Notes: generated by a model from the letters alone, not told the origin. Positions 26,572 through 42,980 are shown, counted from the first letter of the stretch. The stretch is 64,000 nt of DNA from Chloroflexota bacterium (GCA_042408445.1 JBHORC010000024.1:44092-108091); one strand, 5' to 3'. Program-made: numbers and translations.

Positions 26572-27453
26572 ATGACCCTGCCCGCCGGCGAAACCGCCTC
26601 GGCCGACGGCGCCCGCGAGGGATCGCCGGCCACCGCGCTCGAGAGCGTCGACGCGATCGTCGCCCGGTTCCGTGAGCGCGACTACGTCTCCGACCGATCC
26701 CTCGCGACCGCCGTCTTCCTCGCCCTCCGCCTGGGCCGGCCGCTCCTCCTCGAGGGCGAGGCCGGGGTCGGCAAGACGGAGCTGGCCAAGGTCCTCGCGG
26801 CCTCGCTCGGCGCCCGGCTGATCCGCCTCCAGTGCTACGAGGGGCTGGACGTCAATGCCGCGGTCTACGAGTGGAACTACCCGCGCCAGATGCTGGAGAT
26901 CCGGCTGCTCGAGGCGCGCGGCGAGGCGGATCGCGCGAACGCCCACGACATCTTCGGGCCGGATTTCCTGATCCGGCGACCGCTCCTGCAGGCGCTCGAG
27001 GCGGACGCATCCGGTGAGCCGCCGGTCCTGCTCATCGACGAGATCGACCGGGCTGACGAGGAGTTCGAGGCGTACCTCCTCGAGATCCTCTCGGACTTCC
27101 AGGTGACGGTCCCCGAGATCGGCACGATCAAGGCGGCCCGGCCCCCGCGGGTGATCCTGACGTCGAACCGGACGCGCGAGGTCCATGACGCCCTGAAGCG
27201 CCGCTGCCTCTACCACTGGATCGACTACCCGACGGCGCAGAAGGAATTCGAGATCGTCCTCGCCCGCGTCCCCGAGGCACCGGAGCGGCTGGCGCGCGAG
27301 GTCGTCGGCTTCGTCCATCGCCTCCGGGAGGCCGACCTGACGAAGGTGCCCGGGATCGCGGAGACCCTCGACTGGGCGGCGGCCCTGCTGTCGCTCGGCT
27401 CGCGTGAGCTGACCGGCGAGGTGGTCGACGAGACGCTCGGCGTCGTCCTCTAG
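26572..27453 (+). CDS. coxD: MoxR-family AAA+ ATPase, CoxD-like CODH maturation factor
   Basis: Walker A GEAGVGKTELAK, Walker B LLIDEIDRA, MoxR-type length. Ends at TAG followed by an in-frame 24-codon open stretch. Confidence 0.8.
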   Translation: MTLPAGETASADGAREGSPATALESVDAIVARFRERDYVSDRSLATAVFLALRLGRPLLLEGEAGVGKTELAKVLAASLGARLIRLQCYEGLDVNAAVYEWNYPRQMLEIRLLEARGEADRANAHDIFGPDFLIRRPLLQALEADASGEPPVLLIDEIDRADEEFEAYLLEILSDFQVTVPEIGTIKAARPPRVILTSNRTREVHDALKRRCLYHWIDYPTAQKEFEIVLARVPEAPERLAREVVGFVHRLREADLTKVPGIAETLDWAAALLSLGSRELTGEVVDETLGVVL

Positions 27454-27551
27454 TACGAGGAGGACATCCGGCGGGTCCGCGGCGACACGGCCCGGACCTA
27501 CCTCGCCGAGGCGAGCGCGACCGCCTGACGGCGGCGGCTCGAGATCGCGGA

Positions 27552-28967
27552 GTGACCGCGCCGCGCGACCCGAACGACCCGGCGATCGTCCGCGCGCCCT
27601 GGGGACCGGAGGTGGACGGCCGCCGCCTGCTTGCCGAGTCGGTCGGCTTCGGACGGGCGCTTCGCGCCGCCGGGCTGGCGACGGATCTTGGCGCCGCCGC
27701 GGACTTCGCCCGGGCGCTGACCTGCATCGAGATGGGCGAGCGCGACACGGTCCGAGCCGCCGGGGAAGCGGTCTTCGTCCGCCGTCGCGACGATCGCGAG
27801 GTCTACGACCGCGTCTTTGCCCGCTGGTGGCGGAAGCGCGGCCGGAAGCGACCGATGACGGACGGCCCGGCCGTGCCGACGACGGACGAGAGCGCCCCGG
27901 ACGCCGAGGACGGCGTCGGCACGCCGGCCGGCGAGGAAGGCACGATCGGCGACGACCCGAACCGGATCGACGGCATCCCGATGCCGATCGCGGGCGACGA
28001 GGACGACGACTCCGAGGTCGACGGGATCATCGCCGCGCCGACCGCCTATTCCTCCAGCGAGCTGCTCCGTCACCGCGACTTCGACCGGATGACCGCGGCC
28101 GAGCTGCGGGACGCCGAGCGGCTCGTCGACCTGCTGGAGCCGCGCCTCGAGATGCGCCGGACGCGGCGATACGAGCTGCATCATCACGGCCGCCTCCTCG
28201 CGCCGCGGACGATGCTTCGACGGAACATCGCCACGGGCGGCCAGTTCACCGAATGGATCTGGCGCCGACCCACGAAGCGGCCCCGTCAGATCGTCGTCCT
28301 GTGCGACATCTCCGGCTCGATGGAGCGCCACTCGCGGCTGCTGCTCCGGTTCGTCCAGGCGCTCTCCGCGGCGTCATCGGTCAAGACGGAGTCGTTCGTG
28401 TTCGGGACGCGCCTGACCCGGGTGACGCGCCTGCTCCGCGATCGCGATCGGGATCGTGCCCTCGCCCGGATCGCCGACAGCGTCAACGACTGGGCCGGCG
28501 GGACGCGGATCGGCGAGTCGTTCCGCGACTTCAACCGGACGTGGGCGCGGCGGACGCTACGCACGAGCGGCATCGTGATCATCGTGTCCGACGGATGGGA
28601 CCGCGGCGACCCGGCGCTCGTGGCGACCGAAACGGCACGCCTTCGCCGGAACTGCCATCGCCTCGTCTGGCTCAACCCGCTGGCGGGCACGCCGGGCTAC
28701 GAGCCGCTCGCCGGCGGGATGCGCGCCGCGCTGCCGTACATCGACGACTTCGTCCCGGCGGGGACCGTGGCCAGCCTCGAGCGGCTCGGCGAGATCCTGG
28801 CGGGGATCCGGTCCAGCGACGTCCGGCGCGGCGGTGAGGCCGCGGCGTCCGCCGACGCCGGCGAGCGCCCGTCCAGCCAGGCGATCCGATCGGCCGCGCC
28901 GCCCCCGCCGCTCGATCTCGGGGCGGTGGATCCGGCTGCCGCGCGGCCCTTGACGCAGCGGACGTAA
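27552..28967 (+). CDS. coxE: VWA-domain protein, CoxE-like CODH maturation factor
   Basis: VWA/MIDAS motif VLCDISGSM. Adjacent to coxD. Confidence 0.7.
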   Translation: MTAPRDPNDPAIVRAPWGPEVDGRRLLAESVGFGRALRAAGLATDLGAAADFARALTCIEMGERDTVRAAGEAVFVRRRDDREVYDRVFARWWRKRGRKRPMTDGPAVPTTDESAPDAEDGVGTPAGEEGTIGDDPNRIDGIPMPIAGDEDDDSEVDGIIAAPTAYSSSELLRHRDFDRMTAAELRDAERLVDLLEPRLEMRRTRRYELHHHGRLLAPRTMLRRNIATGGQFTEWIWRRPTKRPRQIVVLCDISGSMERHSRLLLRFVQALSAASSVKTESFVFGTRLTRVTRLLRDRDRDRALARIADSVNDWAGGTRIGESFRDFNRTWARRTLRTSGIVIIVSDGWDRGDPALVATETARLRRNCHRLVWLNPLAGTPGYEPLAGGMRAALPYIDDFVPAGTVASLERLGEILAGIRSSDVRRGGEAAASADAGERPSSQAIRSAAPPPPLDLGAVDPAAARPLTQRT

Positions 28968-28986
28968 GCGGCGGAGGATCGGCCCG

Positions 28987-30111
28987 ATGAAGGAGCTCCT
29001 GGACCAGCTGGCCGACTGGAACGGACACGGGATCGGTGCCGGGCGGGCCGTGGTCGTCCGGACGTTCGGCAGCGCCCCGCGGCCGGAAGGCGCGGTCCTG
29101 ATCCGGGCAGACGATGGACGGATCGCCGGATCGGTGAGCGGTGGCTGCGTCGAGGGCGCCGCCGCGACGGAGATCGAGCGGGCGCGGGCGGACGGCAACA
29201 GCCGGGTGATCCGCTACGGGATCAGCGACGAGGAGGCGTGGGACGTCGGCCTCGCCTGCGGCGGGACGATCGACGTCCTGATCGAGCCCGTGGTCCCCGT
29301 CGAGGCCGCCGAGGGCGCCGCGCTCCGTGGCCGCGCCGTCGCCACGATCCTGCCGCCGGACGCCCCGCCATCGGGCTTCGGACGTCACGAGCCGGGTGAC
29401 GGCGCACCACCCCAGCCGCGGATCGTCGTCACGCCGGACGGGACGCTCTCCCGTTCCCTCGGCTCGGCCGAGGCGGACGAGGCGTTGCGCCGTGCCGCGA
29501 GCGACGCGCTGCTCCGCGGGACGTCCCGGACCGTGGCCATCGGCGACCGACAGGTGTTCATCGAGGCGTTTCCCGTCCGGCCGCGGCTCGTGATCGTGGG
29601 TGCCGTGGAGGTGGCTCGCTCACTCGCGGTCTTCGCCAGGGAGCTGGGGTACGAGGTCGCCGTGATCGACGGGCGCGCGTCATTCGCGACCCCCGAGCGC
29701 TTTCCGCCGGACCGGGTCGACCGGCTCGTCGTGGGCTGGCCGGACGAGGTGGCGGACGAGATCGGACTCGGTCCGGACGACGCGGTCGCCGTCCTGACCC
29801 ACGACGTCAAGTTCGACGAGCCGGCGATCGTCGAGGCGCTCCGCCGCGGCTGCCGCTACGTCGGCGCGGTCGGATCGCGCAAGACGCAGGGCGATCGACG
29901 CGAGCGGCTCCGCGAGGCGGGCGTCAGCGAGGAGGAGCTCGGCCGGCTCCGCGGCCCGGTCGGTCTCGACCTGGGCGGGCGGAACCCGTCGGAGACGGCG
30001 CTGGCGATCATCGGCGAGGTCGTTGCGGACCGATACGGCGGCTCGGGGCTGCCGCTCCACGCGATCGCCCGCGGGCAGCTCGGGGAGGCACTCGCGCCGG
30101 CTGCGTCCTGA
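28987..30111 (+). CDS. XdhC/CoxI-family molybdoenzyme maturation factor (CoxF-like)
   Basis: XdhC_CoxI N-terminal domain (VVRTFGSAPRPEGA...VSGGCVE) plus Rossmann-like XdhC_C (IVGAVEVARSLAVFA). Confidence 0.7.
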   Translation: MKELLDQLADWNGHGIGAGRAVVVRTFGSAPRPEGAVLIRADDGRIAGSVSGGCVEGAAATEIERARADGNSRVIRYGISDEEAWDVGLACGGTIDVLIEPVVPVEAAEGAALRGRAVATILPPDAPPSGFGRHEPGDGAPPQPRIVVTPDGTLSRSLGSAEADEALRRAASDALLRGTSRTVAIGDRQVFIEAFPVRPRLVIVGAVEVARSLAVFARELGYEVAVIDGRASFATPERFPPDRVDRLVVGWPDEVADEIGLGPDDAVAVLTHDVKFDEPAIVEALRRGCRYVGAVGSRKTQGDRRERLREAGVSEEELGRLRGPVGLDLGGRNPSETALAIIGEVVADRYGGSGLPLHAIARGQLGEALAPAAS

Positions 30112-30257: not shown

Positions 30258-31304
30258 ATGGCCGTCGTGTCTCCACGCCCGCTTCCAGACCGCCCGACGG
30301 TCATCGTCCTGCGGGCGCTTCCCGGTCTGGGCGATTGGCTGTGTGCCGTCCCGACGCTCCGCGCGATCAAGGCGGCACGGCCGAATGCCCGGATTCACCT
30401 CGTCGCCCTCGCCTCAACCCGACCGCTGATCGGGCGGTTCACGGGGCTCGTCGATGGGTTCCACGTGTTCCCGGGCTGGCCGGGTCTGCCGGAGCAGCGC
30501 GTCGATGCCGCCGCGATCCCCGGGTTCCTTGCTGCGCTCCAGTCGCTCGACGCCGACCTCGCGATCCAGCTCCACGGGTCGGGCGAGACGACGAACGAGT
30601 TCGTCCAGCTCTTCGGCGCCCGGCATGTCGCGGGCTTCTACCGGGCCGGCGCCCGCTGCCCCGATCCGTCGCGGTTCCTCACGTGGCGCGACGAGGATCC
30701 GGAGGTGCGGCGGGGCCTGCGACTGCTGAGCCTTCTCGGGATCACCGACGGTAACGAGGAGCTGACCTTTCCGCTCGACCCGGCCGGCGCCGTCGACGCG
30801 CGCCTGCTGCTCGCCGAGGTCGGCGTCACGGAGCCATTCGTCGTCGTGCATCCCGGCGGCAGCCGGCCGGCCGCGCGATGGCGCTGGGACGGGTTCGCGC
30901 GGGTGGGGGGCGAGATGGCGGCGCTCGGCCGGCAGGTCGTCGTGACCGGCACCCGCGAGGAGGCGTCGCTGACGAGCGCGGTCGCGGCCGCGATCCCCGG
31001 TGCCGTCGATCTCGGCGGCCGGACCAGCCTCGATTCCCTCGGCTGGATCCTTCGCCAGGCGACGCTCGTGGTCGCCAACGACACCGGCGTCGCGCATCTC
31101 GCGGACGCCCTCGACGTCCCGAGCGTCGTCGTGTTCGCCGCGGACGACGGCAGCCGGGCCGCGCGCTGGGCGCCGCTCGACACGCGCCTCCACCAGGCTG
31201 TCGGTGGGTCGCCGGGAGCCGTCTCCGCACGTGCGCGGCGGCTGCTCCGACAGATCGAGCGAGGCGCGGGCAGCCGGACGCGACATCCCGGAGTGATGGC
31301 GTGA
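30258..31304 (+). CDS. GT9-family glycosyltransferase (ADP-heptose-dependent heptosyltransferase-like)
   Basis: N-terminal VIVLRALPGLGDWLCAVP and C-terminal NDTGVAHLADALDVPSVVVF motifs typical of WaaC/WaaF-like GT9. Confidence 0.8.
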   Translation: MAVVSPRPLPDRPTVIVLRALPGLGDWLCAVPTLRAIKAARPNARIHLVALASTRPLIGRFTGLVDGFHVFPGWPGLPEQRVDAAAIPGFLAALQSLDADLAIQLHGSGETTNEFVQLFGARHVAGFYRAGARCPDPSRFLTWRDEDPEVRRGLRLLSLLGITDGNEELTFPLDPAGAVDARLLLAEVGVTEPFVVVHPGGSRPAARWRWDGFARVGGEMAALGRQVVVTGTREEASLTSAVAAAIPGAVDLGGRTSLDSLGWILRQATLVVANDTGVAHLADALDVPSVVVFAADDGSRAARWAPLDTRLHQAVGGSPGAVSARARRLLRQIERGAGSRTRHPGVMA

Positions 31305-32368
31305 CGCCGTTCAAGGTGCTCACCTGGCATGTCCACGGGAGCTACCTGGACTCGCTCGCCCGGACCGGCCATGAGTTCTACATCCCGGTGTCCGATCCGC
31401 CGCGGGCGGGGTACGCGCCGCGCTGGCCGGAATGGGGCCCGAACGTGATCGAAGTCCCCGAGGCGGCGGTCCGGGATCTCGACGTCGACGTCGTGCTGTT
31501 CCAGTCGCGGGAGGCGTGGGAGACCGACCAGCACACGATCCTGTCGGCGGAGCAGCGCCGGCTGCCGCGGATGTACCTCGAGCACGATCCGCCGCGCGAG
31601 CACCCGACGGACACCCGCCACTGGGTTGCCGACCCGGACGTCCTCCTCGTCCAGGTCACCCATTTCAACGACCTGATGTGGGACGCCGAACCGACCCCGA
31701 CCCGGGTGATCGAGCACGGCGTCGCGGTGCCGGAGGCCGTCCGGTATGACGGGAGCCTCGAGCGAGGCATCGTCGTCATCAACGACCTCGCGACCCGGGG
31801 TCGCCGTCTCGGCGCGGACCTGTTCGTCGCAGCGCGACGGCAGGTGCCGCTCGATCTCGTCGGGATGAACGCGACGCGACTCGGCGGCCTGGGGGAGGTC
31901 CGCCGCCCGGACCTTGCCGCCTTCGAGGCCCGCTACCGCTTCTTCTTCAACCCGATCCGCTACACGAGCCTGGGACTCGGCCTGCTCGAGGCGATGATGA
32001 TCGGCATGCCGGTCGTCGCCTTCGCGACGACCGAGATCCCGGTCGTCATCGAGGACGGCGTGTCGGGGATCATCGCGACCGATCACGAGGTCCTCCTCGA
32101 CGGGATGCGCGCGCTGATCGCCGATCGCGACCTGGCGCGAGAGCTGGGCGCGGCCGCGCGACGGACGGCCCTCGAGCGGTTCTCGATCCCGCGCTTCGCC
32201 GCGGACTGGACCGCCGCGTTCGAGGACGTCACCGGTCGTCGTGCCGGAACCCGCCCCATCGCCATTGGCTGGTCCACCCCGTCGGACCGCCCGAACCGGC
32301 TGCCCGCGACGTCGCGCGACGGTCGGACGAGCGTGCCCCAGCCCCTGCACGTGGAGACCGCCTCATGA
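31301..32368 (+). CDS. GT4 (GT-B fold) glycosyltransferase
   Basis: GTGA start/stop overlap. C-terminal EAMMIGMPVVAFATTEIPVVIEDGVSG (E-X7-E-type motif). Confidence 0.7.
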   Translation: MTPFKVLTWHVHGSYLDSLARTGHEFYIPVSDPPRAGYAPRWPEWGPNVIEVPEAAVRDLDVDVVLFQSREAWETDQHTILSAEQRRLPRMYLEHDPPREHPTDTRHWVADPDVLLVQVTHFNDLMWDAEPTPTRVIEHGVAVPEAVRYDGSLERGIVVINDLATRGRRLGADLFVAARRQVPLDLVGMNATRLGGLGEVRRPDLAAFEARYRFFFNPIRYTSLGLGLLEAMMIGMPVVAFATTEIPVVIEDGVSGIIATDHEVLLDGMRALIADRDLARELGAAARRTALERFSIPRFAADWTAAFEDVTGRRAGTRPIAIGWSTPSDRPNRLPATSRDGRTSVPQPLHVETAS

Positions 32369-34350
32369 CGCGCCGCATCGCGATGATCTCGGAGCACGCG
32401 TCGCCCCTGGCGACGCTCGGCGGCGTCGATGCCGGCGGGCAGAACGTCTACGTCGCGCAGGTCGCACGCCATCTCGCCGCCGTCGGCGACCGCGTCGATG
32501 TCTTCACGCGGCGCGACGACCCGAACCTCCGCGAGACGGTCGAGCTGGCCCCGGGCGTCCGCGTCGTGCACGTTCCCGCCGGACCGCCGGAGCCAATCTC
32601 GAAGGAACAGCTCCTGCCGTACATGCCGGCGTTCAGCCAGTGGGTCCGCGAGTGGATCGAGCGCCGGCGCGGCTACGACCTGGTCCACGCCAACTTCTTC
32701 TACTCCGGGCTGGTCGCGGCCGAGCTGAAGGCGAGCCTCGGCCTGCCGTTCGTGATCACGTTCCACGCCCTCGGCCGGATCCGGCGGCAGTTCCACGGTG
32801 GCGGCGACGCGTTCCCGGACGAGCGGTTCGCGATCGAGGACCGGATCGTCGCCGAGGCGGACCGGGTCATCGCGGAGTGCCCGCAGGACGAGGAGGACCT
32901 GATCCGCCTCTACAACGCCGAGCCGTCGCGGATCACGATCGTTCCGTGCGGCTTCGACCCGTCCGAGTTCGAGCCGATGAGCCGGCCGCTGGCGCGTCTG
33001 GACCTCGGCCTGGATCCTGCCGAGCCGATCCTCCTCCAGCTCGGCCGGATGGTCCCGCGGAAGGGCGTCGACAACGTCATCCGCGCGGTCTCGCGTCTCG
33101 CGGACGAGCACGACCTCCGTGTCCGGCTCCTGGTCGTCGGCGGGCCGGACCGCGAGCCGGACATCAGCCGGGCACCGGAGCTCGCCCGGCTCACCGAGGT
33201 CGCTCGCAAGGAAGGCGTCGCCGATCGCGTCCAGTTCGTCGGCCGCCGCGACCGCTCGGAGCTGAAGACGTACTACAACGCGGCCGACATCTTCGTCTCG
33301 ACCCCTTGGTACGAGCCGTTCGGCATCACCCCCGTCGAGGCGATGGCCTGCGGCATCCCGGTCGTGGGATCACGCGTCGGCGGGATCAAGTTCAGCGTCC
33401 GCGACGGCGAGACCGGCTACCTCGTCCCCGCCGACGACCCGAGCGCCCTTGCCGAGCGGATCGCCCACCTCTATCGCCACCCGAAGCTCCTCTCCGTGTT
33501 CGGCCGTCAGGCGATCCGCCGGGCGAACGACCTGTTCACCTGGGAGCGGGTCGCGAACGGCCTCGCCGCGGTGTACGAGGACGTGCTCCTCGAGGGCCGG
33601 CTCGCCCGTCGGGATGAGGCCGAGCGACTGGCGAAGGTCGATCGCCGCTTCGAGGAGGCCATCGAGGCGCTCGTCCAGACGCGGCGCCGGTCGCGGGCCG
33701 CGATCGTCGAGGCGGCCGACGAGATCTGCCGGGCGCTCGCGCGGGACGGCAAGCTGCTGATCGCCGGGAACGGCGGGAGCGCGGCCGCTGCATCCCACTG
33801 GGCAGCCGAGTTCGTCGGGCGGTTCCTCGACCACGGTCGCCCCGGGCTCGCGGCGATCTGTCTCGGGACGGATCCATCGGTCGTCACCGCCTGGTCGAAC
33901 GACGTCGGCTTCGACGACGTCTTCGCCCGCCACGTCGAGGCGCTCGGCCGGCCGGGCGACGTGATGATCGGCCTGTCGACGAGCGGGCGGTCGCCGAACC
34001 TCGTCCGCGCGTTCGAGAAGGCCCATGCCCTGGGCCTTCGGACGATCGCGCTGCTCGGCGGCGACGGCGGCGACCTGCGAGCCCACGCGGACCAGGTCGT
34101 CCTCGTGCCGTCGAAGAACACGCAGCACATCCAGGAAGCGCACGACGTGATCGTTCACGTGCTGTGCGAGCTGGTGGAGCAGCGGCTCGTCGCCGCGGGC
34201 TGGTTCAAGCGGCAGACGGGCGGGACGAAGGCCGGGACCGCTGATCCCGGCGCCGAGGACGTGCAGACGCCGCGGCCGACCAGCCACCGAACCAGCACCT
34301 CCCGCGGACCGCGGCCGCGAACCCGCACCCGACAAGGAGTGATTTCGTGA
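32365..34350 (+). CDS. gmhA: Fusion protein: MshA-like GT4 glycosyltransferase (N-terminal) + sedoheptulose-7-phosphate isomerase GmhA (C-terminal SIS domain)
   Basis: N-terminal RIAMISEHASPLATLGGVDAGGQNVYV (MshA-type). C-terminal LLIAGNGGSAAAASHWAAEFVGRF...DVMIGLSTSGRSPNLV...IQEAHDVIVHVLCELVE (GmhA SIS signature). Confidence 0.85.
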   Translation: MTRRIAMISEHASPLATLGGVDAGGQNVYVAQVARHLAAVGDRVDVFTRRDDPNLRETVELAPGVRVVHVPAGPPEPISKEQLLPYMPAFSQWVREWIERRRGYDLVHANFFYSGLVAAELKASLGLPFVITFHALGRIRRQFHGGGDAFPDERFAIEDRIVAEADRVIAECPQDEEDLIRLYNAEPSRITIVPCGFDPSEFEPMSRPLARLDLGLDPAEPILLQLGRMVPRKGVDNVIRAVSRLADEHDLRVRLLVVGGPDREPDISRAPELARLTEVARKEGVADRVQFVGRRDRSELKTYYNAADIFVSTPWYEPFGITPVEAMACGIPVVGSRVGGIKFSVRDGETGYLVPADDPSALAERIAHLYRHPKLLSVFGRQAIRRANDLFTWERVANGLAAVYEDVLLEGRLARRDEAERLAKVDRRFEEAIEALVQTRRRSRAAIVEAADEICRALARDGKLLIAGNGGSAAAASHWAAEFVGRFLDHGRPGLAAICLGTDPSVVTAWSNDVGFDDVFARHVEALGRPGDVMIGLSTSGRSPNLVRAFEKAHALGLRTIALLGGDGGDLRAHADQVVLVPSKNTQHIQEAHDVIVHVLCELVEQRLVAAGWFKRQTGGTKAGTADPGAEDVQTPRPTSHRTSTSRGPRPRTRTRQGVIS

Positions 34351-35198
34351 CCCTGACCGATACCCCTCGTCCCACCCGACGCCCGGCATCGGCCGGCGGC
34401 TCGGCCACGGCCAGCGAGGTCGAGCGCGGGAGCGATGGCGCGACCGCTCGCGACGCGTGGGCCGACGGCCTCGCCGGGCATCTCGTCGGACAGGTGGCGC
34501 TCGTCACGGGTGGCGGCAGCGGTCTCGGCCGGGCGACCTGCGACGTGCTTGGCGCGGCCGGGATGCGCGTCCTGGTCGGCGACATTTCCGCGGCCGGACG
34601 GGAGGAGACGGCGGCATCGATCCTCGGCGCCGGCGGCGACGCGGAGCCGATTGCCCTGGACGTCACCGATCCCGGCTCTGCGACGGCCGGCGTCGCTGCC
34701 GCCGTGGATCGCTGGGGCCGGCTCGACGTCCTCGTGAACAACGCGGGGATCGACCGGACGGCACCGTTCGACGAGCTCGAGGTCGACGACTGGGATCGGA
34801 TCCTCGCGGTGAATCTCCGCGGCCCGGTCGTCATGACGAAGGCGGCCCTCCCCGCGATGCGACAGGCGGGCCGCGGCCACATCGTGAACATCACCTCGAC
34901 CGCGGCCAAGCGGGCGTGGGAGAACGCAAGCGCGTACCACGCCACGAAGTGGGGCCTGCTCGGGCTGAGCCACGCCCTGCACACGGAGGCACGGCGCGAG
35001 GGGATCAAGGTCACGGCTGTTGTCTGTGGCGGGATGCGGACGCCGTTCCTGCTCGATCGCTTTCCGGACCTCGATCCGGGGCTGCTCCAGGACCCGCGAA
35101 CGGTCGCCGAGACGATCCGGTTCGCCCTGTCGCTGCCGGACGAATCCGTGATCCCCGAGATCACGGTGTTGCCGATGCGCGAGACCTCGTGGCCATGA
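34347..35198 (+). CDS. Classical short-chain dehydrogenase/reductase (SDR)
   Basis: TGGGSGLG cofactor motif, NNAG, YHATK catalytic Y-x3-K. Confidence 0.75.
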   Translation: MTLTDTPRPTRRPASAGGSATASEVERGSDGATARDAWADGLAGHLVGQVALVTGGGSGLGRATCDVLGAAGMRVLVGDISAAGREETAASILGAGGDAEPIALDVTDPGSATAGVAAAVDRWGRLDVLVNNAGIDRTAPFDELEVDDWDRILAVNLRGPVVMTKAALPAMRQAGRGHIVNITSTAAKRAWENASAYHATKWGLLGLSHALHTEARREGIKVTAVVCGGMRTPFLLDRFPDLDPGLLQDPRTVAETIRFALSLPDESVIPEITVLPMRETSWP

Positions 35199-35875
35199 CC
35201 CGACTCGCGCAGCGGGGGAGTCGCCCCGCGGCCCCGGCCTCATCGTCCCCCCGGACCGTGCTGTTCGTGGACAAGGACGGGACGCTCATCGAGGACCTCC
35301 CGTACAACGTCGACCCGCGTCGCGTGCGGTTCGCGCCCGGCGCGCGGGAAGCCGTTCGCCTGCTCGGCGCGGCGGGGGTCGAGCTGGCCGTCGTCACGAA
35401 CCAGTCGGGCGTCGCGCGCGGCTACTTCTCGACGGCGGACCTCCGCCGGCTCGGGGAGCACCTGGCGGAGGAGATCGAGGCCCTCGGCGGGCGGCTTGCC
35501 GGCTTCTACGCGTGCCCCCACCTGCCCGACGGATCCGTGCGGGCGTTCTCGACGAGCTGCGACTGTCGCAAGCCACGGCCCGGCTTGCTCCTCCGCGCGT
35601 TCGCCGAGCTCGGCGTCGACCCGGGCCGTTCGTGGTTCGTCGGCGACACGTGGATGGACGTCGCCGCCGGGCACGCCGCCGGGTGCCGGAGCATCCTCGT
35701 GGGCCCGGAGTGGCGCGACCGATCCACCCATCCGGCCGGCATCGAGCCCGACGCCGCCGTGCCGGATCTCCTCGCGGCCGCCCGGATCGTGCTCGCGGAC
35801 CACGCTCGGGGATCCGAGGCAGCTGGTCGGCCGGTCGAGAAGCGACCCCCCGTGGGACGGGCGGTGTCGGCATGA
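35195..35875 (+). CDS. gmhB: D-glycero-D-manno-heptose 1,7-bisphosphate phosphatase
   Basis: VLFVDKDGTLI (HAD motif I), VVTNQSG, CDCRKP zinc motif, FVGDTWMD. Confidence 0.85.
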   Translation: MTRLAQRGSRPAAPASSSPRTVLFVDKDGTLIEDLPYNVDPRRVRFAPGAREAVRLLGAAGVELAVVTNQSGVARGYFSTADLRRLGEHLAEEIEALGGRLAGFYACPHLPDGSVRAFSTSCDCRKPRPGLLLRAFAELGVDPGRSWFVGDTWMDVAAGHAAGCRSILVGPEWRDRSTHPAGIEPDAAVPDLLAAARIVLADHARGSEAAGRPVEKRPPVGRAVSA

Positions 35876-37356
35876 CGACGGGCCTGCTCGCTGCCGTCGA
35901 CGCGATGCAGGGTCGGCGGATCCTCGTCATCGGCGAAGCGATGCTCGACAGCTACCTCCGCGGCCATGCCGACCGGCTCAGCCGTGAGGCGCCGGTCCCC
36001 GTCGTTGCGATGGACCGCCGCGTGGATTCCGCCGGCGGAGCGGCGAACAGCGCGGCGAATCTCGCCGCGCTGGGCGCCAACGTGACGCTGCTGTCCGTGG
36101 TCGGCCTGGACGAGGAGGGCGAGCGGCTGTGCTCGGCGCTGGTACAAGCCGGCCTCGACACGACCGGCGTGCTGCGCGACCCGCAGCGACGAACCCTGAC
36201 GAAGCAGCGCGTCGTCGCCGACGGCCAGGTGCTGCTCCGCTTCGACAGCGGCACGGTCGATGGCATCTCGGCGACGCTCGAGGACGAGCTGATCGACCGG
36301 ATCGAGGCGCTTGTTCCGGAGATGGATGCCGTGCTGGTCTCGGACTACGCGTACGGCGTCGTCGGCCCGCGGATCGACACCGCGCTCGCCGAGTCGTTCG
36401 CGCGGCGGCGGCCCGTCGTCGTCGTCGATGCCCGCGACCCGTCGCGCCACGCCCGCCTCGCGCCGACCGCCACGAAGCCGAACTACGGCGAGGCGGTCCG
36501 GCTGCTCGGCGAGCAGGAGCTCGAGGGATCCGAGGCTCGCGCCCGCCAGATCGTCGCGGGCGCCGAGACGCTCCATCGCCGGACCGGCTCCGCCGTCGTC
36601 GCGGTGACCCTCGATCGGGAAGGCGCGGTCATCCTCGAGCAGGGACGCCAGCCGTACCGGACATACGCGCGTCCCACGGCGGATCAGCAGGCATGCGGCG
36701 CCGGCGACACGTACAGCGGCGTTCTCGCCCTCGGGCTCGCCGCGGGCGCGCCGACCCCGGTCGCGGCGGAGCTCGCAGCGGCGGCCGCCGGCGTCGTCGT
36801 CCAGAAGGACGGGACGGCGATCTGCACCGCGGCCGACCTCGCGGCAGCCGTCGGCCGATCCGAGAAGCGACTGGAGTCGCTCGACGAGGTCCGGGCACGA
36901 GTGGCGCTCCTTCGCGAGCAGGGCCGCCGGATCGTCTTCACCAACGGCTGCTTCGACATCCTCCACCGCGGTCATGTCACCTATCTGTCACGGGCCAAGG
37001 CGCTCGGCGATGTGCTGCTCGTCGGCGTGAACTCCGACGCGAGCGTCCGCGGGCTGAAGGGCGCCGACCGGCCGATCAACCGCCTCGAGGACCGTCTCAG
37101 CGTTCTCGAGGCGCTCTCCTGCATCGATCACGTCATCCCGTTCGAGGCGGCAACGCCGGCCGCCCTGATCGCCGCGATCCGGCCGGACGTCTTCGTGAAG
37201 GGCGGCGACTATCGCCGCGAGACGTTGCCCGAGGCGCCACTCGTCGAGCGCCTCGGCGGGACGGTCCGGATCCTGTCGTACGTCCAGGACTACTCGACCA
37301 CGAGCCTCATCCACCGTGTCCGGGCGGTCGACCAGACCGAGGCGTTGCGGCAATGA
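35872..37356 (+). CDS. hldE: Bifunctional D-beta-D-heptose 7-phosphate kinase / D-beta-D-heptose 1-phosphate adenylyltransferase
   Basis: PfkB kinase N-domain (ILVIGEAMLDSYL...EAPVPVV, GAGDTY). Cytidylyltransferase-fold C-domain (TNGCFDILHRGHVTYL...VGVNSDASVRGLKG). Confidence 0.9.
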   Translation: MTTGLLAAVDAMQGRRILVIGEAMLDSYLRGHADRLSREAPVPVVAMDRRVDSAGGAANSAANLAALGANVTLLSVVGLDEEGERLCSALVQAGLDTTGVLRDPQRRTLTKQRVVADGQVLLRFDSGTVDGISATLEDELIDRIEALVPEMDAVLVSDYAYGVVGPRIDTALAESFARRRPVVVVDARDPSRHARLAPTATKPNYGEAVRLLGEQELEGSEARARQIVAGAETLHRRTGSAVVAVTLDREGAVILEQGRQPYRTYARPTADQQACGAGDTYSGVLALGLAAGAPTPVAAELAAAAAGVVVQKDGTAICTAADLAAAVGRSEKRLESLDEVRARVALLREQGRRIVFTNGCFDILHRGHVTYLSRAKALGDVLLVGVNSDASVRGLKGADRPINRLEDRLSVLEALSCIDHVIPFEAATPAALIAAIRPDVFVKGGDYRRETLPEAPLVERLGGTVRILSYVQDYSTTSLIHRVRAVDQTEALRQ

Positions 37357-38519
37357 CCGGCGCAGGACTCACCGGCGACTGGGCCGCGGCGCGGAGGATC
37401 CTCGTCGTCCGGCTCGACGCCCTCGGCGACGTGCTGATGACGACGCCCGCGTTCCGCGCCCTCGCCAGTAGCCACCCCGACGTCCGCCTCACGCTGCTCA
37501 CGTCGCGCGCCGGCGCGACCGTCGCCCCGATGCTCCCCGAGATCGGATCCGTGATCGTCCATGACGTCCCGTGGATGAAGACCGAGCCGCCCGACGGCTC
37601 GGGCAGCGGTGGTCGCGCCGACCGCGACCTCATCGATCGCCTCCGCGCGGAGCGCTTCGACGCCGCCGTGATCTTCACCGTCCACAGCCAGAGCGCATTG
37701 CCCGCAGCGCTGCTGTGCCACCTGGCCGACATCCCGCGGCGGCTTGCCCATGCCCGCGAGAATCCCTACCGGCTCCTGACGGACTGGGTCGCCGACCCGG
37801 AGCCGGATGGCCCGACCCGCCACGAGGTCCGGCGTCAGCTCGATCTGGTCGCGACGGTCGGCGCGGCGATCGACGACGACCACCTCTCGGTCCGGGTCCC
37901 ACCGGCAGCCGCCCGAGCCGTTCGGGCCCGTCTCGATGCTCTCGGCGTCCGCCTCGATCGGCCGTGGGCCGTTCTCGCGCCGGGGGCGAGCGCCTCGTCG
38001 CGGCGCTATCCGCCGGCCTCGTACCGGGCCGTCGCCGCGACCCTTGCCCGGGATCATGGCTGGCAGATCGTCGTGACCGGCGGACGGGACGAGGCGGGGC
38101 TCGTGTCGGAGGTCACTGCGGGCCTCGGCCGTCGCGTGATCCCGCTCGCGGGGCAGCTCGATGTCCCGGAGCTCGCGGCGCTTCTCGCGATGACGCCCGT
38201 CCTGATCGGCAACAACTCGGGACCGGCTCACCTCGCGGCGGCCGTGGGGACGCCCGTCGTCGACGTGTACGCGCTCACGAACCTCCAGCACGCGCCGTGG
38301 GGCGTCGTCTCGCGCGTCCTGGCGACGGACGTCCCGTGCAAGGGCTGCCGGAAGAGCGTCTGCCCGATCGGCGACCAGGCCTGCATCCGCGGGGTGGATC
38401 CCGCGGCCGTCGTCTCGGCCGCCATCGAGCTCGTGGCGCCGCACCCCGCCGCCGCGCGGATGCCGGCCGGGATCCTCGTGCCTGACCCGCGGTACGCCCG
38501 ATCGGCCGGTCCCGGGTGA
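37353..38519 (+). CDS. GT9-family heptosyltransferase-like glycosyltransferase (second copy)
   Basis: ILVVRLDALGDVLMTTPAFRAL, NNSGPAHLAAAVGTPVVDVY, Cys-rich CKGCRKSVCP insert typical of WaaF-like enzymes. Confidence 0.8.
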   Translation: MTGAGLTGDWAAARRILVVRLDALGDVLMTTPAFRALASSHPDVRLTLLTSRAGATVAPMLPEIGSVIVHDVPWMKTEPPDGSGSGGRADRDLIDRLRAERFDAAVIFTVHSQSALPAALLCHLADIPRRLAHARENPYRLLTDWVADPEPDGPTRHEVRRQLDLVATVGAAIDDDHLSVRVPPAAARAVRARLDALGVRLDRPWAVLAPGASASSRRYPPASYRAVAATLARDHGWQIVVTGGRDEAGLVSEVTAGLGRRVIPLAGQLDVPELAALLAMTPVLIGNNSGPAHLAAAVGTPVVDVYALTNLQHAPWGVVSRVLATDVPCKGCRKSVCPIGDQACIRGVDPAAVVSAAIELVAPHPAAARMPAGILVPDPRYARSAGPG

Positions 38520-38523
38520 TGCG

Positions 38524-39336
38524 GTGACCGACGACCAGCTGGACCAGGTCGACGTCCTGATCCCGACCTACCGCCGGCCGACCGCCCTCGCGGTGACCCT
38601 CGCGGGTCTCGCCGCCCAGACGCGGTCGTCGCTCCGGATCGTCGTCTCCAGCCAGACCCCGGAGACCGAACCGGTCCTCGGGCCGGAGGCCGAGGCCGTG
38701 GTTCGCGTCCTGCGGGCACAGGGTCGACCCGTCGAGGTCGGCCGGCACCTGCCACGGCGGGGCATGGCGGAGCATCGGCAGTCCCTGCTCGATCGCGCGC
38801 GAGCGCCGTACGCGCTGTTCCTCGACGACGACGTCCTCATCGAGCCGGATCTGGTCGACCGCCTCGTGCGCGCGATCGGCCGGGCGGGCTGCGGCTTCGT
38901 CGGCTCGGCCGTCGTCGGCTTGAGCTACGAATCGGACGTCCGGCCGCACGAGCAGCAGGTCGAGTTCTGGGATGGCCCGGTGACGCCCGAGTCGGTCGTC
39001 CCGGGCACGCCCGCCTGGGAGCGTCACCGCCTCCACAACGCCGCGAACCTGCACCACCTCCGGCGCCGGCTGTCCCCGGGCGATCGGCTCTACCGCGTCG
39101 CATGGGTCGGCGGCTGCGTGCTGTTCGACACGGAGAAGCTGCGGGACGCCGGCGGGTTCGGGTTCTGGCGACAGCTCCCGGAGCAGCACGCGGGCGAGGA
39201 CGTCCTCGCCGAGCTGAACGTGCTGCGCACGTACGGGGGCGCCGGCCTGTTCCCGTCCGGTGCCTACCACCTGGAGCTCCCGACGACGATCCCGAACCGG
39301 GAGCACGACGCCCCGTTCCTTCTGCAGCCCGCCTGA
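38524..39336 (+). CDS. GT2-family (GT-A fold) glycosyltransferase
   Basis: VDVLIPTYRRPTAL and DxD motif FLDDDV. GTG start. Confidence 0.7.
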   Translation: MTDDQLDQVDVLIPTYRRPTALAVTLAGLAAQTRSSLRIVVSSQTPETEPVLGPEAEAVVRVLRAQGRPVEVGRHLPRRGMAEHRQSLLDRARAPYALFLDDDVLIEPDLVDRLVRAIGRAGCGFVGSAVVGLSYESDVRPHEQQVEFWDGPVTPESVVPGTPAWERHRLHNAANLHHLRRRLSPGDRLYRVAWVGGCVLFDTEKLRDAGGFGFWRQLPEQHAGEDVLAELNVLRTYGGAGLFPSGAYHLELPTTIPNREHDAPFLLQPA

Positions 39337-39367
39337 CGGACGCCGAGCACGAACCAAGGGAGACACG

Positions 39368-39931
39368 ATGGCGACCGAGACCAAGACGCGACGCGAATCC
39401 AGCACCCGCAGTCGATCCGGCGGGTCCGGAAGCGGCTCGAGGGCCAGCTCCGGCAGCCGCAATCGGCAGAGCGGCAGCGGCGGCAACGGCAGCAGCGGCG
39501 GCGGCGGCCGGGGACGCGACACGAACGCCAACGCCGACGACCGGACGTTCCTCGAGCGGTTTGGCGACCAGCTCTCGCCCTCGACCCGCCGCGCCCGGTG
39601 GATCCATTCGCCGGACGAGCGACCCGAGCGAAAGGGCCAGACGCTGGCGACCCGCTCCCCGGAGGTGGTCCGTGCCTGGGCGGAGGAGCGCGACGGCCGA
39701 CCGGCGACTGCGACGCGTGGCAAGGACGGGCGGCCGCGAACGCTCCGGATCAGCTTCGCGACCGGCGACGACAGCGGCAGCAGGCGGCGGCGGCTCGAGG
39801 AGATCAGCTGGGACGAGTGGCTCGGGGTCTTCACCGAGCGGAACCTCGTCTTCATCTACCAGCAGCAGCGACGGGACGGGCGCCAGAGCAACTTCTTCCG
39901 GCTCGACAGCCCGGACCGGGAGGACGGCTGA
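39368..39931 (+). CDS. Small basic protein with Ser/Gly/Arg-rich disordered N-terminus and conserved-looking C-terminal domain (function unknown)
   Basis: SD AAGGGAGA before ATG. N-terminal 60 aa low complexity (SRSGGSGSGSRASSGSRNRQSGSGGNGSSGGGG). C-terminal RTLRISFATGDD...ISWDEWLGVFTERNLVFIY. Confidence 0.4.
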   Translation: MATETKTRRESSTRSRSGGSGSGSRASSGSRNRQSGSGGNGSSGGGGRGRDTNANADDRTFLERFGDQLSPSTRRARWIHSPDERPERKGQTLATRSPEVVRAWAEERDGRPATATRGKDGRPRTLRISFATGDDSGSRRRRLEEISWDEWLGVFTERNLVFIYQQQRRDGRQSNFFRLDSPDREDG

Positions 39932-40998
39932 TCGCGGTCGCGGGGGGCGGACCACGGATCCCGAACGTCGAGCGGATCGCCGTCCTCCGCGCCAACGCTC
40001 TCGGTGACCTCGTCGTCGCCCTGCCCGCGCTCGAGGCGCTGCGAGCCGCCTACCCGGACGCCGAGATCACGCTCCTCGGCCGGCAGCACCACGTCGCGCT
40101 GCTCGGAAGCCGCGATGGTCCCGTCGATCGGGTGATCCCGCTGCCGGACGGCGCGATCGGCGACGAAGGGCGCGAGGATCCGGACCTGGATCGGGACGCG
40201 CTCCTGGACGATCTCGCCGCGCGCGGCTTCGACCTGGCGATCCAGCTTCACGGCGGCGGCCGCAACTCGAACCGGTTCGTGCGGGGGCTCGGCGCGCGGG
40301 TCACGGCCGGCAGCCGGACGCCGGACGCGCCCCAGCTCGATCGGTGGATCCCGTACGAGCACTACCAGTGGGAGATCGCCCGGTATCTCGAGGTCGTCGG
40401 CCTGGTCGGGGCGGCGCCGGTTGCGATCGAGCCTCGGCTCGACGTCACGGACCATGACCGGGCGGCGCTGGACCGCGAGCTGCCGGGCGTCCGCGGCAGC
40501 CACCCGATCGTGATCCATCCCGGGGCGAGCGATGCCCGGCGGCGCTGGCCGGTCGAGCGGTTCATCGAGGTCGTCACGGAGCTCCGCAGGCTCGGCCGCG
40601 AGGTCGTGGTCACGGGCACCCGCGACGAGGCCCACCTCGTCGAGCCGATCGTCGAATCCGCGACGGAGGGCACGACGGCGGCGCTGACGCTCTCCCTGCC
40701 GGCCCTGCTCGCGCTCGTCGCGAGCGCCGATCTCGTCGTGTCGAACGACACCGGACCGCTCCACCTCGCGATCGCGGCCGGGACGCCGACCGTGGGTCTG
40801 TTCTGGGTCGGCAACCTGATCAACGCCGGGCCGTTCTCGCGCCGCCGCCACCGTCCCTTGCTGTCATGGCGGATGCTCTGCCCGGTCTGTGGAGCGGACG
40901 CGTCCGTCGAGCGCTGCGAGCACAACCCCTCGTTCATCGCGGAGATCCCGGTCCGGTCCGTGATCGATGCGGCCACCGACCTGCTCCGCGTACGATGA
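39928..40998 (+). CDS. GT9-family heptosyltransferase-like glycosyltransferase (third copy), apparently lacking a canonical start codon
   Basis: RIAVLRANALGDLVVALPALEAL, SNDTGPLHLAIAAGTPTVGLF, C-x2-C-x8-C tail. Only in-frame candidate start near the expected N-terminus is CTG at 39928, overlapping the upstream TGA. Confidence 0.7.
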   Translation: MIAVAGGGPRIPNVERIAVLRANALGDLVVALPALEALRAAYPDAEITLLGRQHHVALLGSRDGPVDRVIPLPDGAIGDEGREDPDLDRDALLDDLAARGFDLAIQLHGGGRNSNRFVRGLGARVTAGSRTPDAPQLDRWIPYEHYQWEIARYLEVVGLVGAAPVAIEPRLDVTDHDRAALDRELPGVRGSHPIVIHPGASDARRRWPVERFIEVVTELRRLGREVVVTGTRDEAHLVEPIVESATEGTTAALTLSLPALLALVASADLVVSNDTGPLHLAIAAGTPTVGLFWVGNLINAGPFSRRRHRPLLSWRMLCPVCGADASVERCEHNPSFIAEIPVRSVIDAATDLLRVR

Positions 40999-42929
40999 CC
41001 CCACCGACGCCGAGCCTCCCGAGACGCCGCGCCCCGGACCGCGAGCCCCTGATCGCGGTGATCATGCCGACGTACGCCCAGGCCGCGTTCCTCCCGCGGG
41101 CGGTGTCGAGCCTCCTCGCCCAGACCGAGACACGCTGGCAGCTGTGCATCGTCGACGACGCGTCGCCGGACGAGACCGCGGCCCTCGTGACGCCGTACCT
41201 CGCCGACCCCCGGATCCGCTACATCCGCCGTCCGTCGAACGGTGGCGTCGGCCGCGCGCTCAACGACGGGCTGGACGCGACCCAGGCGCCGCTCGTCGCC
41301 TATCTGCCCTCGGACGACGTCCTGCACGCGGACCATCTGGCGACCCTGCTCGCGACGCTCGGCGACGATCCGGCGGTCGTCATGGCGACGACGGGCGTTC
41401 GCCACCACTACAACCGGGATGCCCTCGACACCGTCGACGGCTGGCCGCAGCTCGTCCAGGTCCTCCATCGGCGCGTTCCCGAGCGCTGGGTCGAGCGCGA
41501 CGAGCTCGTCACCGACGATCTCGACCGGATGTACTGGTCTGCCGTCCGGCGTCACGGCGACGTCCGCCAGACGGGTCGGGTGACGTGCGAGTGGGTCCAT
41601 CACCCCGACCAGCTGACGCACCTGATCCGCGAGCCGCTCGGCGGCATCAATCCGTTCCGCCAGCGGTTCGGCATCAGCCATCCGCTCCGGTTCGAGACGA
41701 CCGTCGGCGATCCGATCGACGAGGTCGCCCGATACCGGCGGTTCCGCGACCGCCCGCCGACGCCGATGGCACCGGACGGGCTCCGGATCCTGCTGGTCGG
41801 CGAGCTCTCCTACAACCCGGAGCGGATCCTCGCGCTCGAGGAACGAGGCCACCGGCTGTTCGGGCTCTGGACGCCGGATCCCGCCTGGTACACGGCCGTC
41901 GGCCCGGTCCCGTTCGGTCACGTCCAGGACGTCCCGAGCCACGACTGGGAGACCGCGGTCCGCGAGCTCCGGCCGGACGTGATCTACGCGCTCCTGAACT
42001 GGCACGCCGTGCCGTTCGCCGCCGAGGTCCGCCGGCGCCTCGCCGACATCCCGTTCGTCTGGCACTTCAAGGAAGGTCCATTCATCTGCCGCGAGCGCGG
42101 GACGTGGAGCGACCTCGTCGAGCTGACGGACCGGTCGGCCGGCGTCATCCACTCGAGCCGCGAGATGGCCGACTGGTTCGCGACGTTCCTGCCCGACGCG
42201 AACGATCCGCGCCGCAGCCTGGTGCTCGACGGCGACCTGCCGAAGGCCGAGTGGTTCGAGGGGATCCGGCCGTCGCCGCGACTCTCGGCGGCCGACGGGG
42301 AGATCCACACCGTCGTCCCGGGCCGCCCGATCGGGCTGCATCCCGAGGACGTCGCCGCGCTCGCGGGGGAGGGGATCCATCTCCACTTCCACGGCCAGTT
42401 CACCCACGGCCAGTGGCGCGAGTGGATCGAGCGGAGTCGCAGGCTCGCGCCACGTCACCTCCATCTCCACCCCACCGCGGGCCAGGAGGAGTGGGTCGCG
42501 GTCTTCTCCCAGTACGACGCCGGCTGGCTGCACGTCTTCGAGTCGACGAACGGCGGCGACCTGGCTGCGGCGAGCTGGGACGACCTGAATCTCCCCGCCC
42601 GGATGGCGACGCTCGCGGCGGCCGGCCTGCCGATGATCCAGCGGCGCAACGACGGCTCGACCGTGGCCATCCAGACCGTCGCGCGGGAGCTGGGGATCGG
42701 CGTGTTCTTCGAGCGGCCGGACGAGCTCGCGGCGACCCTCCGCGACGAGGTGGAGATGCGGCGCGCGCGGGCCAACGTCACCCGCCACCAGGCGGAGTTC
42801 ACGTTCGATCACCACGCCAACCGGTTGATCGAGTTCTTCCGGCGGGTGGTCGACCGGCCCGCGTCGTCCTCCGAGCTGTCCCTGGGCGCGATCGCATCGC
42901 CCGCGGCGGGCGCGACCGCCGCGTTCTGA
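40994..42929 (+). CDS. Dual-domain glycosyltransferase: N-terminal GT2 (GT-A) plus C-terminal GT-B-like Rossmann domains
   Basis: N-terminal LIAVIMPTYAQAAFL...CIVDDASPDE...LPSDD (GT2). C-terminal approx. 400 aa with Rossmann-like ILLVGELSYNPE and second-lobe pattern. Confidence 0.6.
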
Positions 42930-42980
42930 GCGGCGGCTGTGCGCGGACTTCTGGTCGCCATTGCCCGATATCGTTCGCGG

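Follow-up and report, generated by a model that had tools for sequence, protein, structure and literature searches.

ADP-heptose is known mainly for two roles, one as a precursor of the lipopolysaccharide (LPS) core and the other as an agonist of innate immunity. LPS inner-core heptose loci (gmhA, hldE, gmhB, hldD and waaC/waaF/waaQ) combine a complete supply of this nucleotide sugar with multiple GT9 glycosyltransferases, and the joining of heptose-activation enzymes in one polypeptide is familiar from bifunctional HldE, although there the partners are a kinase and a nucleotidyltransferase and not GmhA and a glycosyltransferase. In actinobacteria, Tang et al. reportedly described in 2022 "tridomain NDP-heptose synthetases", which, going by the title of that work, carry a further synthetase domain. 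Here we describe a locus in a 64-kb stretch of DNA (the window; ~72% G+C) from Chloroflexota bacterium (GCA_042408445.1, JBHORC010000024.1:44092-108091), in which an open reading frame (ORF) at 32365..34350 joins a GT4 glycosyltransferase to a phosphoheptose isomerase of the GmhA type. Each half belongs to a well-known family, and the fusion is an uncharacterised variant of known enzyme kinds; judged by its sequence, it is accurately labelled a GT4-GmhA bifunctional protein of an uncharacterised ADP-heptose/GT9 cassette. Its gene is the third in a ten-gene, same-strand cluster of 12.7 kb (30258-42929; the cluster lies on the + strand) that encodes GmhA, HldE, GmhB and GT9 proteins together, and its SIS domain is the sole GmhA in the window. 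We consider it moderately probable that the fusion unites two steps of one pathway, with the GmhA domain feeding ADP-heptose supply and the GT4 domain working in the same glycoconjugate pathway.

An earlier note on this DNA had read a genuine GT4-GmhA fusion in a single ORF of 661 amino acids (aa), and this reading stands. The frame runs uninterrupted from an ATG that overlaps the stop codon of the upstream gene (ATGA) and follows a GGAG at -11, to a TGA, included in the coordinates, that overlaps the GTG start of the downstream gene (GTGA). All three of its Pfam domains score far above their gathering thresholds: Glyco_transf_4 at aa 24-200 (1.4e-32), Glycos_transf_1 at aa 213-385 (3.8e-42) and SIS_2 at aa 430-565 (9.7e-24; 84.4 bits against a cutoff of 27). 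Likewise, the NCBIfam MshA model TIGR03449 is covered end to end by aa 4-408 (2.6e-93, 313.1 bits), and gmhA/phosphoheptose isomerase models match aa 423-609 (6e-53 and 3e-51), E-values far beyond chance. Together with matches to PDB entries and a Foldseek comparison, this delimits a predicted retaining GT4 domain, resembling sucrose-phosphate synthase (SPS) and MshA, at 32374..33588 (aa 4-408), and a GmhA-type SIS domain, resembling sedoheptulose-7-phosphate (S7P) isomerase and matching B. pseudomallei GmhA (BpGmhA), at 33631..34194 (aa 423-610).

The two domains are predicted to form a continuous structure. In an AlphaFold2 model built from an alignment of 26 fusion homologues (mean column identity 66%; model pLDDT 81, pTM 0.61), a GT-B fold passes through a helix into an alpha/beta SIS fold (aa 464-618) and then into a disordered tail. 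The junction (33541..33741, aa 393-459), conserved in the same alignment, is modelled as one continuous helix (DSSP; block pLDDT 68-93) in which the final helix of the GT-B fold runs on into the first of GmhA. The earlier note had assigned the C-terminal approx. 190 aa to GmhA; this holds for the SIS region, but the domain stops near aa 612, and beyond it lies a basic, low-complexity tail of ~45 aa (34219..34347, aa 619-661) that is poorly conserved, varies in length and sequence among the aligned homologues and is predicted to be disordered (pLDDT <50). No chain covering both domains was found in a Foldseek search of PDB structures.

The resemblance of the C-terminal half to characterised GmhA (B. 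pseudomallei, 2x3y/2xbl; E. coli, 2i22) extends to the SIS fold, the His-Glu-Gln-His set and the STSGxS loop, as well as to an operon shared with HldE, GmhB and GT9s, as in LPS core loci. Its best PDB sequence match is BpGmhA (1e-46), whose zinc-binding and catalytic residues H64, E68, Q175 and H183 align with H478, E482, Q590 and H598 of the fusion, and its phosphate loop LSTSGRSPN (aa 537-545) aligns with YSTSGKSPN. This H/E/Q/H core is intact in 72 of the 81 fusion homologues included in our residue survey, the window protein among them. Unlike GmhA itself, the domain sits C-terminal of a 410-aa GT4 via a long helix and carries the extra disordered tail. The link to heptose metabolism proposed in the earlier note is borne out by the operon: because HldE, GmhB and three GT9s are encoded alongside it, the GmhA domain has there an ordinary job, the first step of ADP-heptose supply.

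The fusion had also been called unusual, which it is not. A search of 5.8 billion protein clusters yielded best 120 matches of 557-692 aa, 61-96% identical and all with GT4 and SIS_2 domains, some of which JGI already labels [quoted passage not shown]; automatic annotation as "glycosyltransferase/phosphoheptose isomerase" thus precedes our work. In a scan covering a single genome for each species, at least 594 relatives came up; the best 80 all match nearly the whole fusion, 77 of them reaching at least residue 605, while in the remaining three the match is cut by a contig end or stops at 561-591. Carriers fall in at least 10 phyla, cultured strains included. They include Chloroflexota, Actinomycetota, Nitrospira, Nitrosospira, Acidobacteriota, Balneolaceae, Nannocystis, Bacteroidota (Chitinophaga, Chryseosolibacter, Parapedobacter) and many Cyanobacteria (Leptolyngbya JSC-1, Scytonema NIES-4073, Tolypothrix, Nodosilinea), with Methylomirabilota and Terriglobales appearing among the clusters. 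The architecture is therefore already abundant in databases and not categorically new; widespread as it is, full-text literature searches gave no description of the GT4-GmhA fusion or of its cassette. The same distribution bears on the suggestion that two genes were joined artificially by a frameshift or a lost stop at the junction, for which nothing was found to speak. The same N-to-C architecture recurs in 80 species genomes and the best 120 clusters (more than 120 clusters carry the fusion), from independent projects, with a conserved junction spanned by one modelled helix, and a sequencing or assembly artefact can for practical purposes be dismissed.

Conservation extends to the neighbouring genes. 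When each window protein was searched by tblastn against 83 fetched loci, the order GT9, GT-like protein, fusion, SDR, HAD, HldE, GT9, GT2 was seen to be kept in Chloroflexota, Cyanobacteria, Actinomycetota, Myxococcota, Bacteroidota, Nitrospira, Nitrosospira and Acidobacteriota. In the 52 loci whose flanks are full, reaching 5 kb or more upstream and 7 kb or more downstream, GT9 is present in all 52 (at least three copies in 28), the GT-like gene in 50, HAD in 47, HldE in 43 and the SDR, absent from Bacteroidota versions of the cassette, in 41. We read this as a conserved, horizontally distributed "heptoside" operon.

Variants of the cassette speak to why the two domains are joined. The earlier note had proposed substrate channelling as the reason for the fusion, an idea that fares poorly here, as GmhA has its ordinary ADP-heptose role and split, GmhA-less and decayed cassettes all exist. 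When 1.84 billion representatives were searched exhaustively with only the GT4 half as query, the best matches mixed fused proteins (609-663 aa) with free-standing orthologues (412-451 aa, 51-57% identical). A split cassette, L087 (GCA_002898875.1, BEIC01000054; 2422-11892), encodes in order a PucR/CdaR-like regulator, a free 218-aa SIS/GmhA protein, HAD, HldE, three GT9s, the GT-like protein, a 450-aa GT4 and GT2; its GmhA adjoins HAD and HldE, in a donor-supply block, and lies 6.5 kb from the GT4. Two further loci (L085 and L086) keep GT-like, GT4, (SDR), HAD and GT9, with neither GmhA nor HldE on the contig or within 10 kb. Finally, 8 of 81 homologues have a decayed H/E/Q/H core in the fused SIS domain, their GT4 residues staying invariant: L053, L072 and L073 (Nitrospira), L029 (Nitrospiraceae), L037 and L042 (Vicinamibacterales), L022 (Bryobacteraceae) and L016 (Chloroflexota); a ninth altered sequence, L076, ends at a contig edge. 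By their sequences, the eight look like dead-enzyme domains retained in the fusion. From these three kinds of cassette it follows that the GT4 needs no GmhA in cis. The GT4 is the constant part of the system and the isomerase a variable add-on that goes with ADP-heptose supply, a pattern that speaks against a fusion made for obligate channelling. Obligate substrate channelling is thus not supported.

The retention of decayed domains also invites a structural or regulatory explanation, in which the SIS domain is mainly non-catalytic and acts as a tetramerisation scaffold, or as a sugar-phosphate sensor that regulates the GT4, comparable to DiaA. Eight fused proteins have, after all, lost the core residues and kept the domain; the window protein carries an activity-lowering Ala in its channel (see below); the SIS half has a detectable relative in DiaA, an SIS tetramer that is not an enzyme (1e-32); and a long helical connector would suit such a role. 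GmhA, however, scores ~14 orders of magnitude better than DiaA, and the phosphate loop as well as the core is intact in the 72 homologues counted above. Moreover, taking away the SIS domain would leave the window operon with HldE, GmhB and three GT9s and nothing local to make heptose-7-phosphate. We regard a mainly non-catalytic SIS domain as quite improbable.

Turning to the N-terminal half, the earlier note had likened it to MshA, and the full-length match to the MshA model supports this, except that the closest relative is, by a slight margin, SPS. The best PDB sequence match is T. elongatus SPS (TeSPS; tll1590, 6kih; 1.6e-77, 34-36% identical) and the second C. glutamicum MshA (CgMshA; 3c48/3c4q; 8e-66, 33% identical), with Foldseek TM values of 0.86 and 0.85, respectively. 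The best relatives by sequence and structure, TeSPS, MshA, HoSPS, GlgM and BshA, have small anionic acceptors in common (Fru-6-P, Ins-P, Glc-1-P, malate). A GT-B fold, an EX7E motif (E317, E325), a catalytic His and the Arg/Lys pair for the phosphate of the nucleoside diphosphate (NDP) are all found in the GT4 half, and K80, F111, H134, R228, K233, E317 and E325 are invariant in all 81 homologues, with R154 in 79.

Residue by residue, the correspondence with TeSPS is close (chain numbering in 6kih is the published numbering plus 3; E331, P332, L335 and E339 agree). The catalytic His158 and Glu331 of TeSPS, its UDP-phosphate ligands Arg249 and Arg253, its acceptor-phosphate ligands Arg105 and Arg178 and its fructose contacts Ala48 and Gln51 (PMC7264703) correspond to H134 and E317, R228 and K233, K80 and R154, and A23 and Q26 (within AGGQN) of the fusion, respectively; the Arg-to-Lys change at K80 is conservative, and TeSPS E339 of the EX7E motif corresponds to E325. 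K80 and R154 align equally with K78 and R154 of CgMshA. Vetting et al. are said to have identified in 2008 four ligands of the inositol-phosphate phosphate in that enzyme, K78, Y110, T134 and R154, of which Y110 and T134 are replaced in the fusion by invariant Phe111 and Ala135, so that the complete set of MshA is not retained. The GGMN motif of MshA is GGQN in the fusion, and the operon is one for heptose, not mycothiol. TeSPS for its part differs in being free-standing, in a separate cyanobacterial orthologue group and with no heptose genes nearby, for which reason we set it aside as a member of the heptose cassette.

Given the retained acceptor-phosphate ligands and relatives that use small anionic acceptors, we infer from these alignments that the GT4 half is a retaining transferase competent to glycosylate a small phosphorylated acceptor. 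The earlier note's suggestion of a phosphorylated acceptor is thereby made plausible, with K80 and R154 matching the equivalent ligands of both TeSPS and MshA.

Which acceptor this might be leads to a more specific proposal: the GT4 would glycosylate the substrate or product of the attached GmhA (S7P or heptose-7-phosphate) to give a phospho-disaccharide that the HAD would dephosphorylate and the other transferases elongate, the fusion serving to couple the two sites. TeSPS, the closest characterised homologue, glycosylates fructose-6-phosphate, a ketose phosphate of which S7P is the C7 homologue, and both K80/R154 and the fructose-contacting Gln of GGQN are conserved; the invariant Phe111 and Ala135, at the positions of two reported phosphate ligands of MshA, could make room for a longer sugar phosphate. 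The HAD, moreover, stays with the GT4 where HldE is missing (HAD without HldE in five loci, HldE without HAD in one), like SPS and SPP, and an enzyme of the GmhB type comes already specialised for a heptose 7-phosphate. The pairing of GT-like protein and GT4 also mirrors that of tll1591 (TeGSS) and tll1590, which under salt stress make sucrose-6-phosphate and then glucosylsucrose oligosaccharides, TeSPS too having a partner of ~360 aa encoded upstream (TeGSS, 7fg9). The phosphatase next to the fusion is of the GmhB type and not of the SPP type. The similarity of the GT-like protein to TeGSS, however, is weak (30% over 129 aa of a generic C-terminal motif), so that we reject it as a TeGSS orthologue and treat the likeness as an analogy. 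Split (6.5 kb), GmhA-less and dead-SIS cassettes show that coupling in cis is not required; supplying ADP-heptose to three GT9s is already a sufficient role for GmhA; and the residue-level evidence does not identify the acceptor. Glycosylation of a GmhA substrate or product is in our judgement possible, if rather unlikely. Separately, we observed that in cyanobacteria a GT4 of ~360 aa always comes ahead of the TeSPS-type GT4 (L092:5865-8362, L093:5857-8341).

We return to the reading in which the two domains serve one pathway through separate reactions. The C-terminal GmhA domain, on strong grounds of homology, would isomerise S7P to the 7-phosphate of D-glycero-D-manno-heptose, and the three GT9 enzymes of the operon would use the resulting ADP-heptose as donor. 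As no HldD-type epimerase was found in the operon, whose sole SDR is a classical adh_short protein, the D,D-heptose is expected. The GT4 domain would be a retaining hexosyl- or HexNAc-transferase of the SPS/MshA/GlgM type that takes a sugar from an NDP-sugar and places it on a small phosphorylated acceptor, creating the primer or one residue of a glycoconjugate, which the GT-like, GT2 and GT9 enzymes would elongate; the HAD may additionally strip the acceptor phosphate, as SPP does after SPS. A GmhA homotetramer would hold four GT4 domains on one core, and the fusion most likely serves co-expression, stoichiometry or assembly and probably not obligatory metabolite channelling. All cassette proteins of the window seem to be soluble, and neither a flippase nor a polymerase or exporter is conserved with them; assembly of the product therefore probably takes place in the cytoplasm or at the membrane's inner face.

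A different division of labour would have the GT4 itself take ADP-heptose as donor; the fusion would then unite the first step of one heptosylation pathway with its last. The complete ADP-heptose pathway is indeed encoded in the operon of the GT4, and GlgM, a GT4 relative, uses an ADP-sugar. Three dedicated GT9s are nonetheless present, and the GT4 persists in cassettes that lack GmhA or HldE. GT4 enzymes, furthermore, are retaining and have alpha-linked NDP-sugars as their known donors, whereas the ADP-heptose made by HldE is beta-linked and a substrate of inverting GT9 enzymes. We hold a GT4 that uses ADP-heptose to be very improbable.

Several observations weigh against the reading in which the two domains serve one pathway. 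Neither of the GmhA equivalog cutoffs is reached (TIGR00441, 173.4 vs 209.45; PRK13936, 179.5 vs 276); since the models are covered end to end, the shortfall reflects divergence and not truncation. The MshA equivalog is likewise missed (TIGR03449, 313.1 vs 462.5 bits), as is the SPS equivalog domain (TIGR02472, 123.7 vs 576 bits), and because it falls below the curated thresholds of all three, the fusion is not to be filed as GmhA, MshA or SPS. In place of the channel Asp of BpGmhA (D61) the window protein has Ala475 (codon 33787-33789); this position is D or E in 71 of 81 homologues and Ala in 3 (the window protein and two others). A D61A variant of BpGmhA keeps 6% activity and loses its half-site cooperativity (PMC5705639), from which the window isomerase may be slow. 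The frequency of the fusion and its predicted rigid helical connector would fit a direct coupling of active sites. Decay of the SIS core may also be tied to loss of HldE, a link that is suggestive only: of the three decayed cases with full flanks, two (L053 and L073) have no HldE within 10 kb and one (L016) has it, giving an odds ratio of 12 (Fisher p = 0.07) among loci that are not phylogenetically independent. Lastly, GT9 enzymes classically act on lipid-linked acceptors, which fits a purely soluble product poorly. Taking the intact core and phosphate loop together with the Ala at the channel position, we conclude that the fused GmhA domain is probably active and possibly slow.

The window operon opens with a heptosyltransferase-like GT9 (GT9a, 30258..31304; Pfam Glyco_transf_9, 2.1e-21), whose matches to the NCBIfam heptosyltransferase I/II/III models lie below cutoff and whose orthologue is found upstream of the fusion in most related loci. 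The GT-like protein that follows (31301..32368, 355 aa) is the constant upstream partner of the GT4, with a GTGA overlap to GT9a and an ATGA overlap to the fusion; it has a divergent N-half, matches Pfam Glyco_trans_1_4/Glycos_transf_1 at aa ~200-290 only, and its PDB matches are weak and C-terminal (GlgM 6tvp, TeGSS 7fg9). Downstream of the fusion lie a classical SDR of 283 aa (34347..35198; adh_short, 5e-56), whose PDB relatives are generic and uninformative, so that we dropped it as a clue to the acceptor, and a GmhB-type HAD phosphatase (35195..35875; PRK08942, 2.6e-38; HAD-IIIA; E. coli GmhB 2gmw, 6e-28), which starts in an ATGA overlap. HldE, a predicted heptose-7-phosphate kinase/heptose-1-phosphate adenylyltransferase with PfkB and CTP_transf_like domains (35872..37356; PRK11316, 1.7e-112), exceeds the cutoff of its rfaE_dom_II model (198.6 vs 181.5).

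A second GT9 (GT9b, 37353..38519) occupies the frame of the ORF at 36129..38519, with its start at MTGAGL in an ATGA overlap with HldE; it is paralogous to GT9a and to the third GT9, and its orthologues, annotated PF01075, follow HldE in nearly all loci. Next come a GT2 of 270 aa (GT2a, 38524..39336; Glycos_transf_2, 1.5e-11), with an orthologue in ~38 loci, and the third GT9 (GT9c, 39598..40998; Glyco_transf_9, 9.4e-25), whose start is uncertain: its resemblance to the paralogues sets in near 39958, making a GTG at 39817 the likelier start. The last cassette gene encodes a two-part GT2 (GT2b, 40995..42929; Glycos_transf_2, 1e-27) with an N-terminal GT2 domain and a C-terminal region of ~400 aa that matches no Pfam family; it overlaps GT9c by ATGA, and its orthologues occur in few loci (L014, L016). 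Six consecutive 4-nt ATGA/GTGA overlaps connect GT9a through GT9b and a seventh connects GT9c with GT2b, an unusually long run of translational coupling in an operon.

With LPS inner-core loci the cassette shares a complete ADP-heptose supply and multiple GT9s, and it differs from them in what it lacks and what it adds. HldD is missing from the window operon; Kdo, lipid A, WaaL and export genes are neither in the window cassette nor conserved in the 81 loci. The cassette adds GT4, GT-like, GT2 and SDR proteins and, in ~22 loci, a NodU/CmcH carbamoyltransferase. Chloroflexota and some of the other carrier phyla are not known for heptose-containing LPS. A classical surface-polysaccharide locus was considered and is not supported: an initiating phosphoglycosyltransferase, a flippase, a polymerase and an ABC exporter are all absent from the window and not conserved in the 81 loci, and the cassette proteins of the window have no convincing transmembrane segment. 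Unbiased clustering of ORFs in the loci likewise gave no conserved transporter, flippase, polymerase or candidate acceptor protein. Besides the carbamoyltransferase, recurrent extras are a GT2 with C-terminal transmembrane helices (~20 loci), additional GT4s and, in cyanobacterial loci, a PucR/CdaR-like regulator. A sub-variant with carbamoyltransferase and transmembrane GT2 occurs in about 20 related loci, for example at L053:14696-16483, L077:15067-16116 and L086:5912-8652, and hints that in those lineages the product is O-carbamoylated and membrane-associated. An anti-phage role, raised by a match to the Pfam family GT4-conflict (PF20706, 3e-20), was also rejected: PADLOC recognised 0 of 10 cassette proteins, and generic GT4 matches are much stronger.

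The surroundings of the cassette in the window are of another kind. At 26572-30111 lie genes for a CoxD-like AAA ATPase, a CoxE VWA protein and XdhC, and at 42939-43625 one for a MobA-like nucleotidyltransferase, all of them maturation genes for molybdenum enzymes (CO- or xanthine-dehydrogenase) that are normally found together. They flank the cassette in none of the 83 other loci, which suggests that the cassette was inserted here, between molybdenum-enzyme genes, as a mobile module. A second XdhC-like frame is present at ~51050-51712 (+), 30% identical to the XdhC at 28987-30111. Unrelated to the fusion is a STAND-type protein of 805 aa encoded at 24121-26538 (+), in which multiple TPR repeats come after an NB-ARC/AAA_16 NTPase.

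Viewed within its operon, the fusion is nothing out of the ordinary; the conserved cross-phylum cassette, with its putative heptose-containing product, is the worthwhile open question. Why Chloroflexota, Actinomycetota and many Cyanobacteria without heptose LPS keep a full ADP-heptose pathway is largely unanswered; in the cassette it is coupled to an SPS/MshA-like transferase and three or four heptosyltransferases, and export machinery is missing. Its natural fused, split, GmhA-less and dead-domain forms are a ready system in which to test whether a fusion within a sugar pathway implies channelling, and the identity of its product would define a new heptose glycoconjugate and give a function to hundreds of genes now annotated "glycosyltransferase". 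One speculative, and in our view unlikely, answer is that the cassette makes a hitherto undescribed class of heptose-containing non-reducing oligosaccharides or glycosides: S7P or heptose-7-phosphate would be glycosylated by the SPS-like GT4 beside a GmhA tetramer to a "sucrose-6-phosphate-like" phospho-disaccharide, dephosphorylated by the HAD and extended with hexose and D,D-heptose by the GT-like, GT2 and three to four GT9 enzymes, with carbamoylation in some lineages. If true, this would mean a cytoplasmic solute or an envelope glycolipid head group common to Chloroflexota, Actinomycetota, Cyanobacteria and others, and a function for ADP-heptose outside LPS and natural-product pathways.

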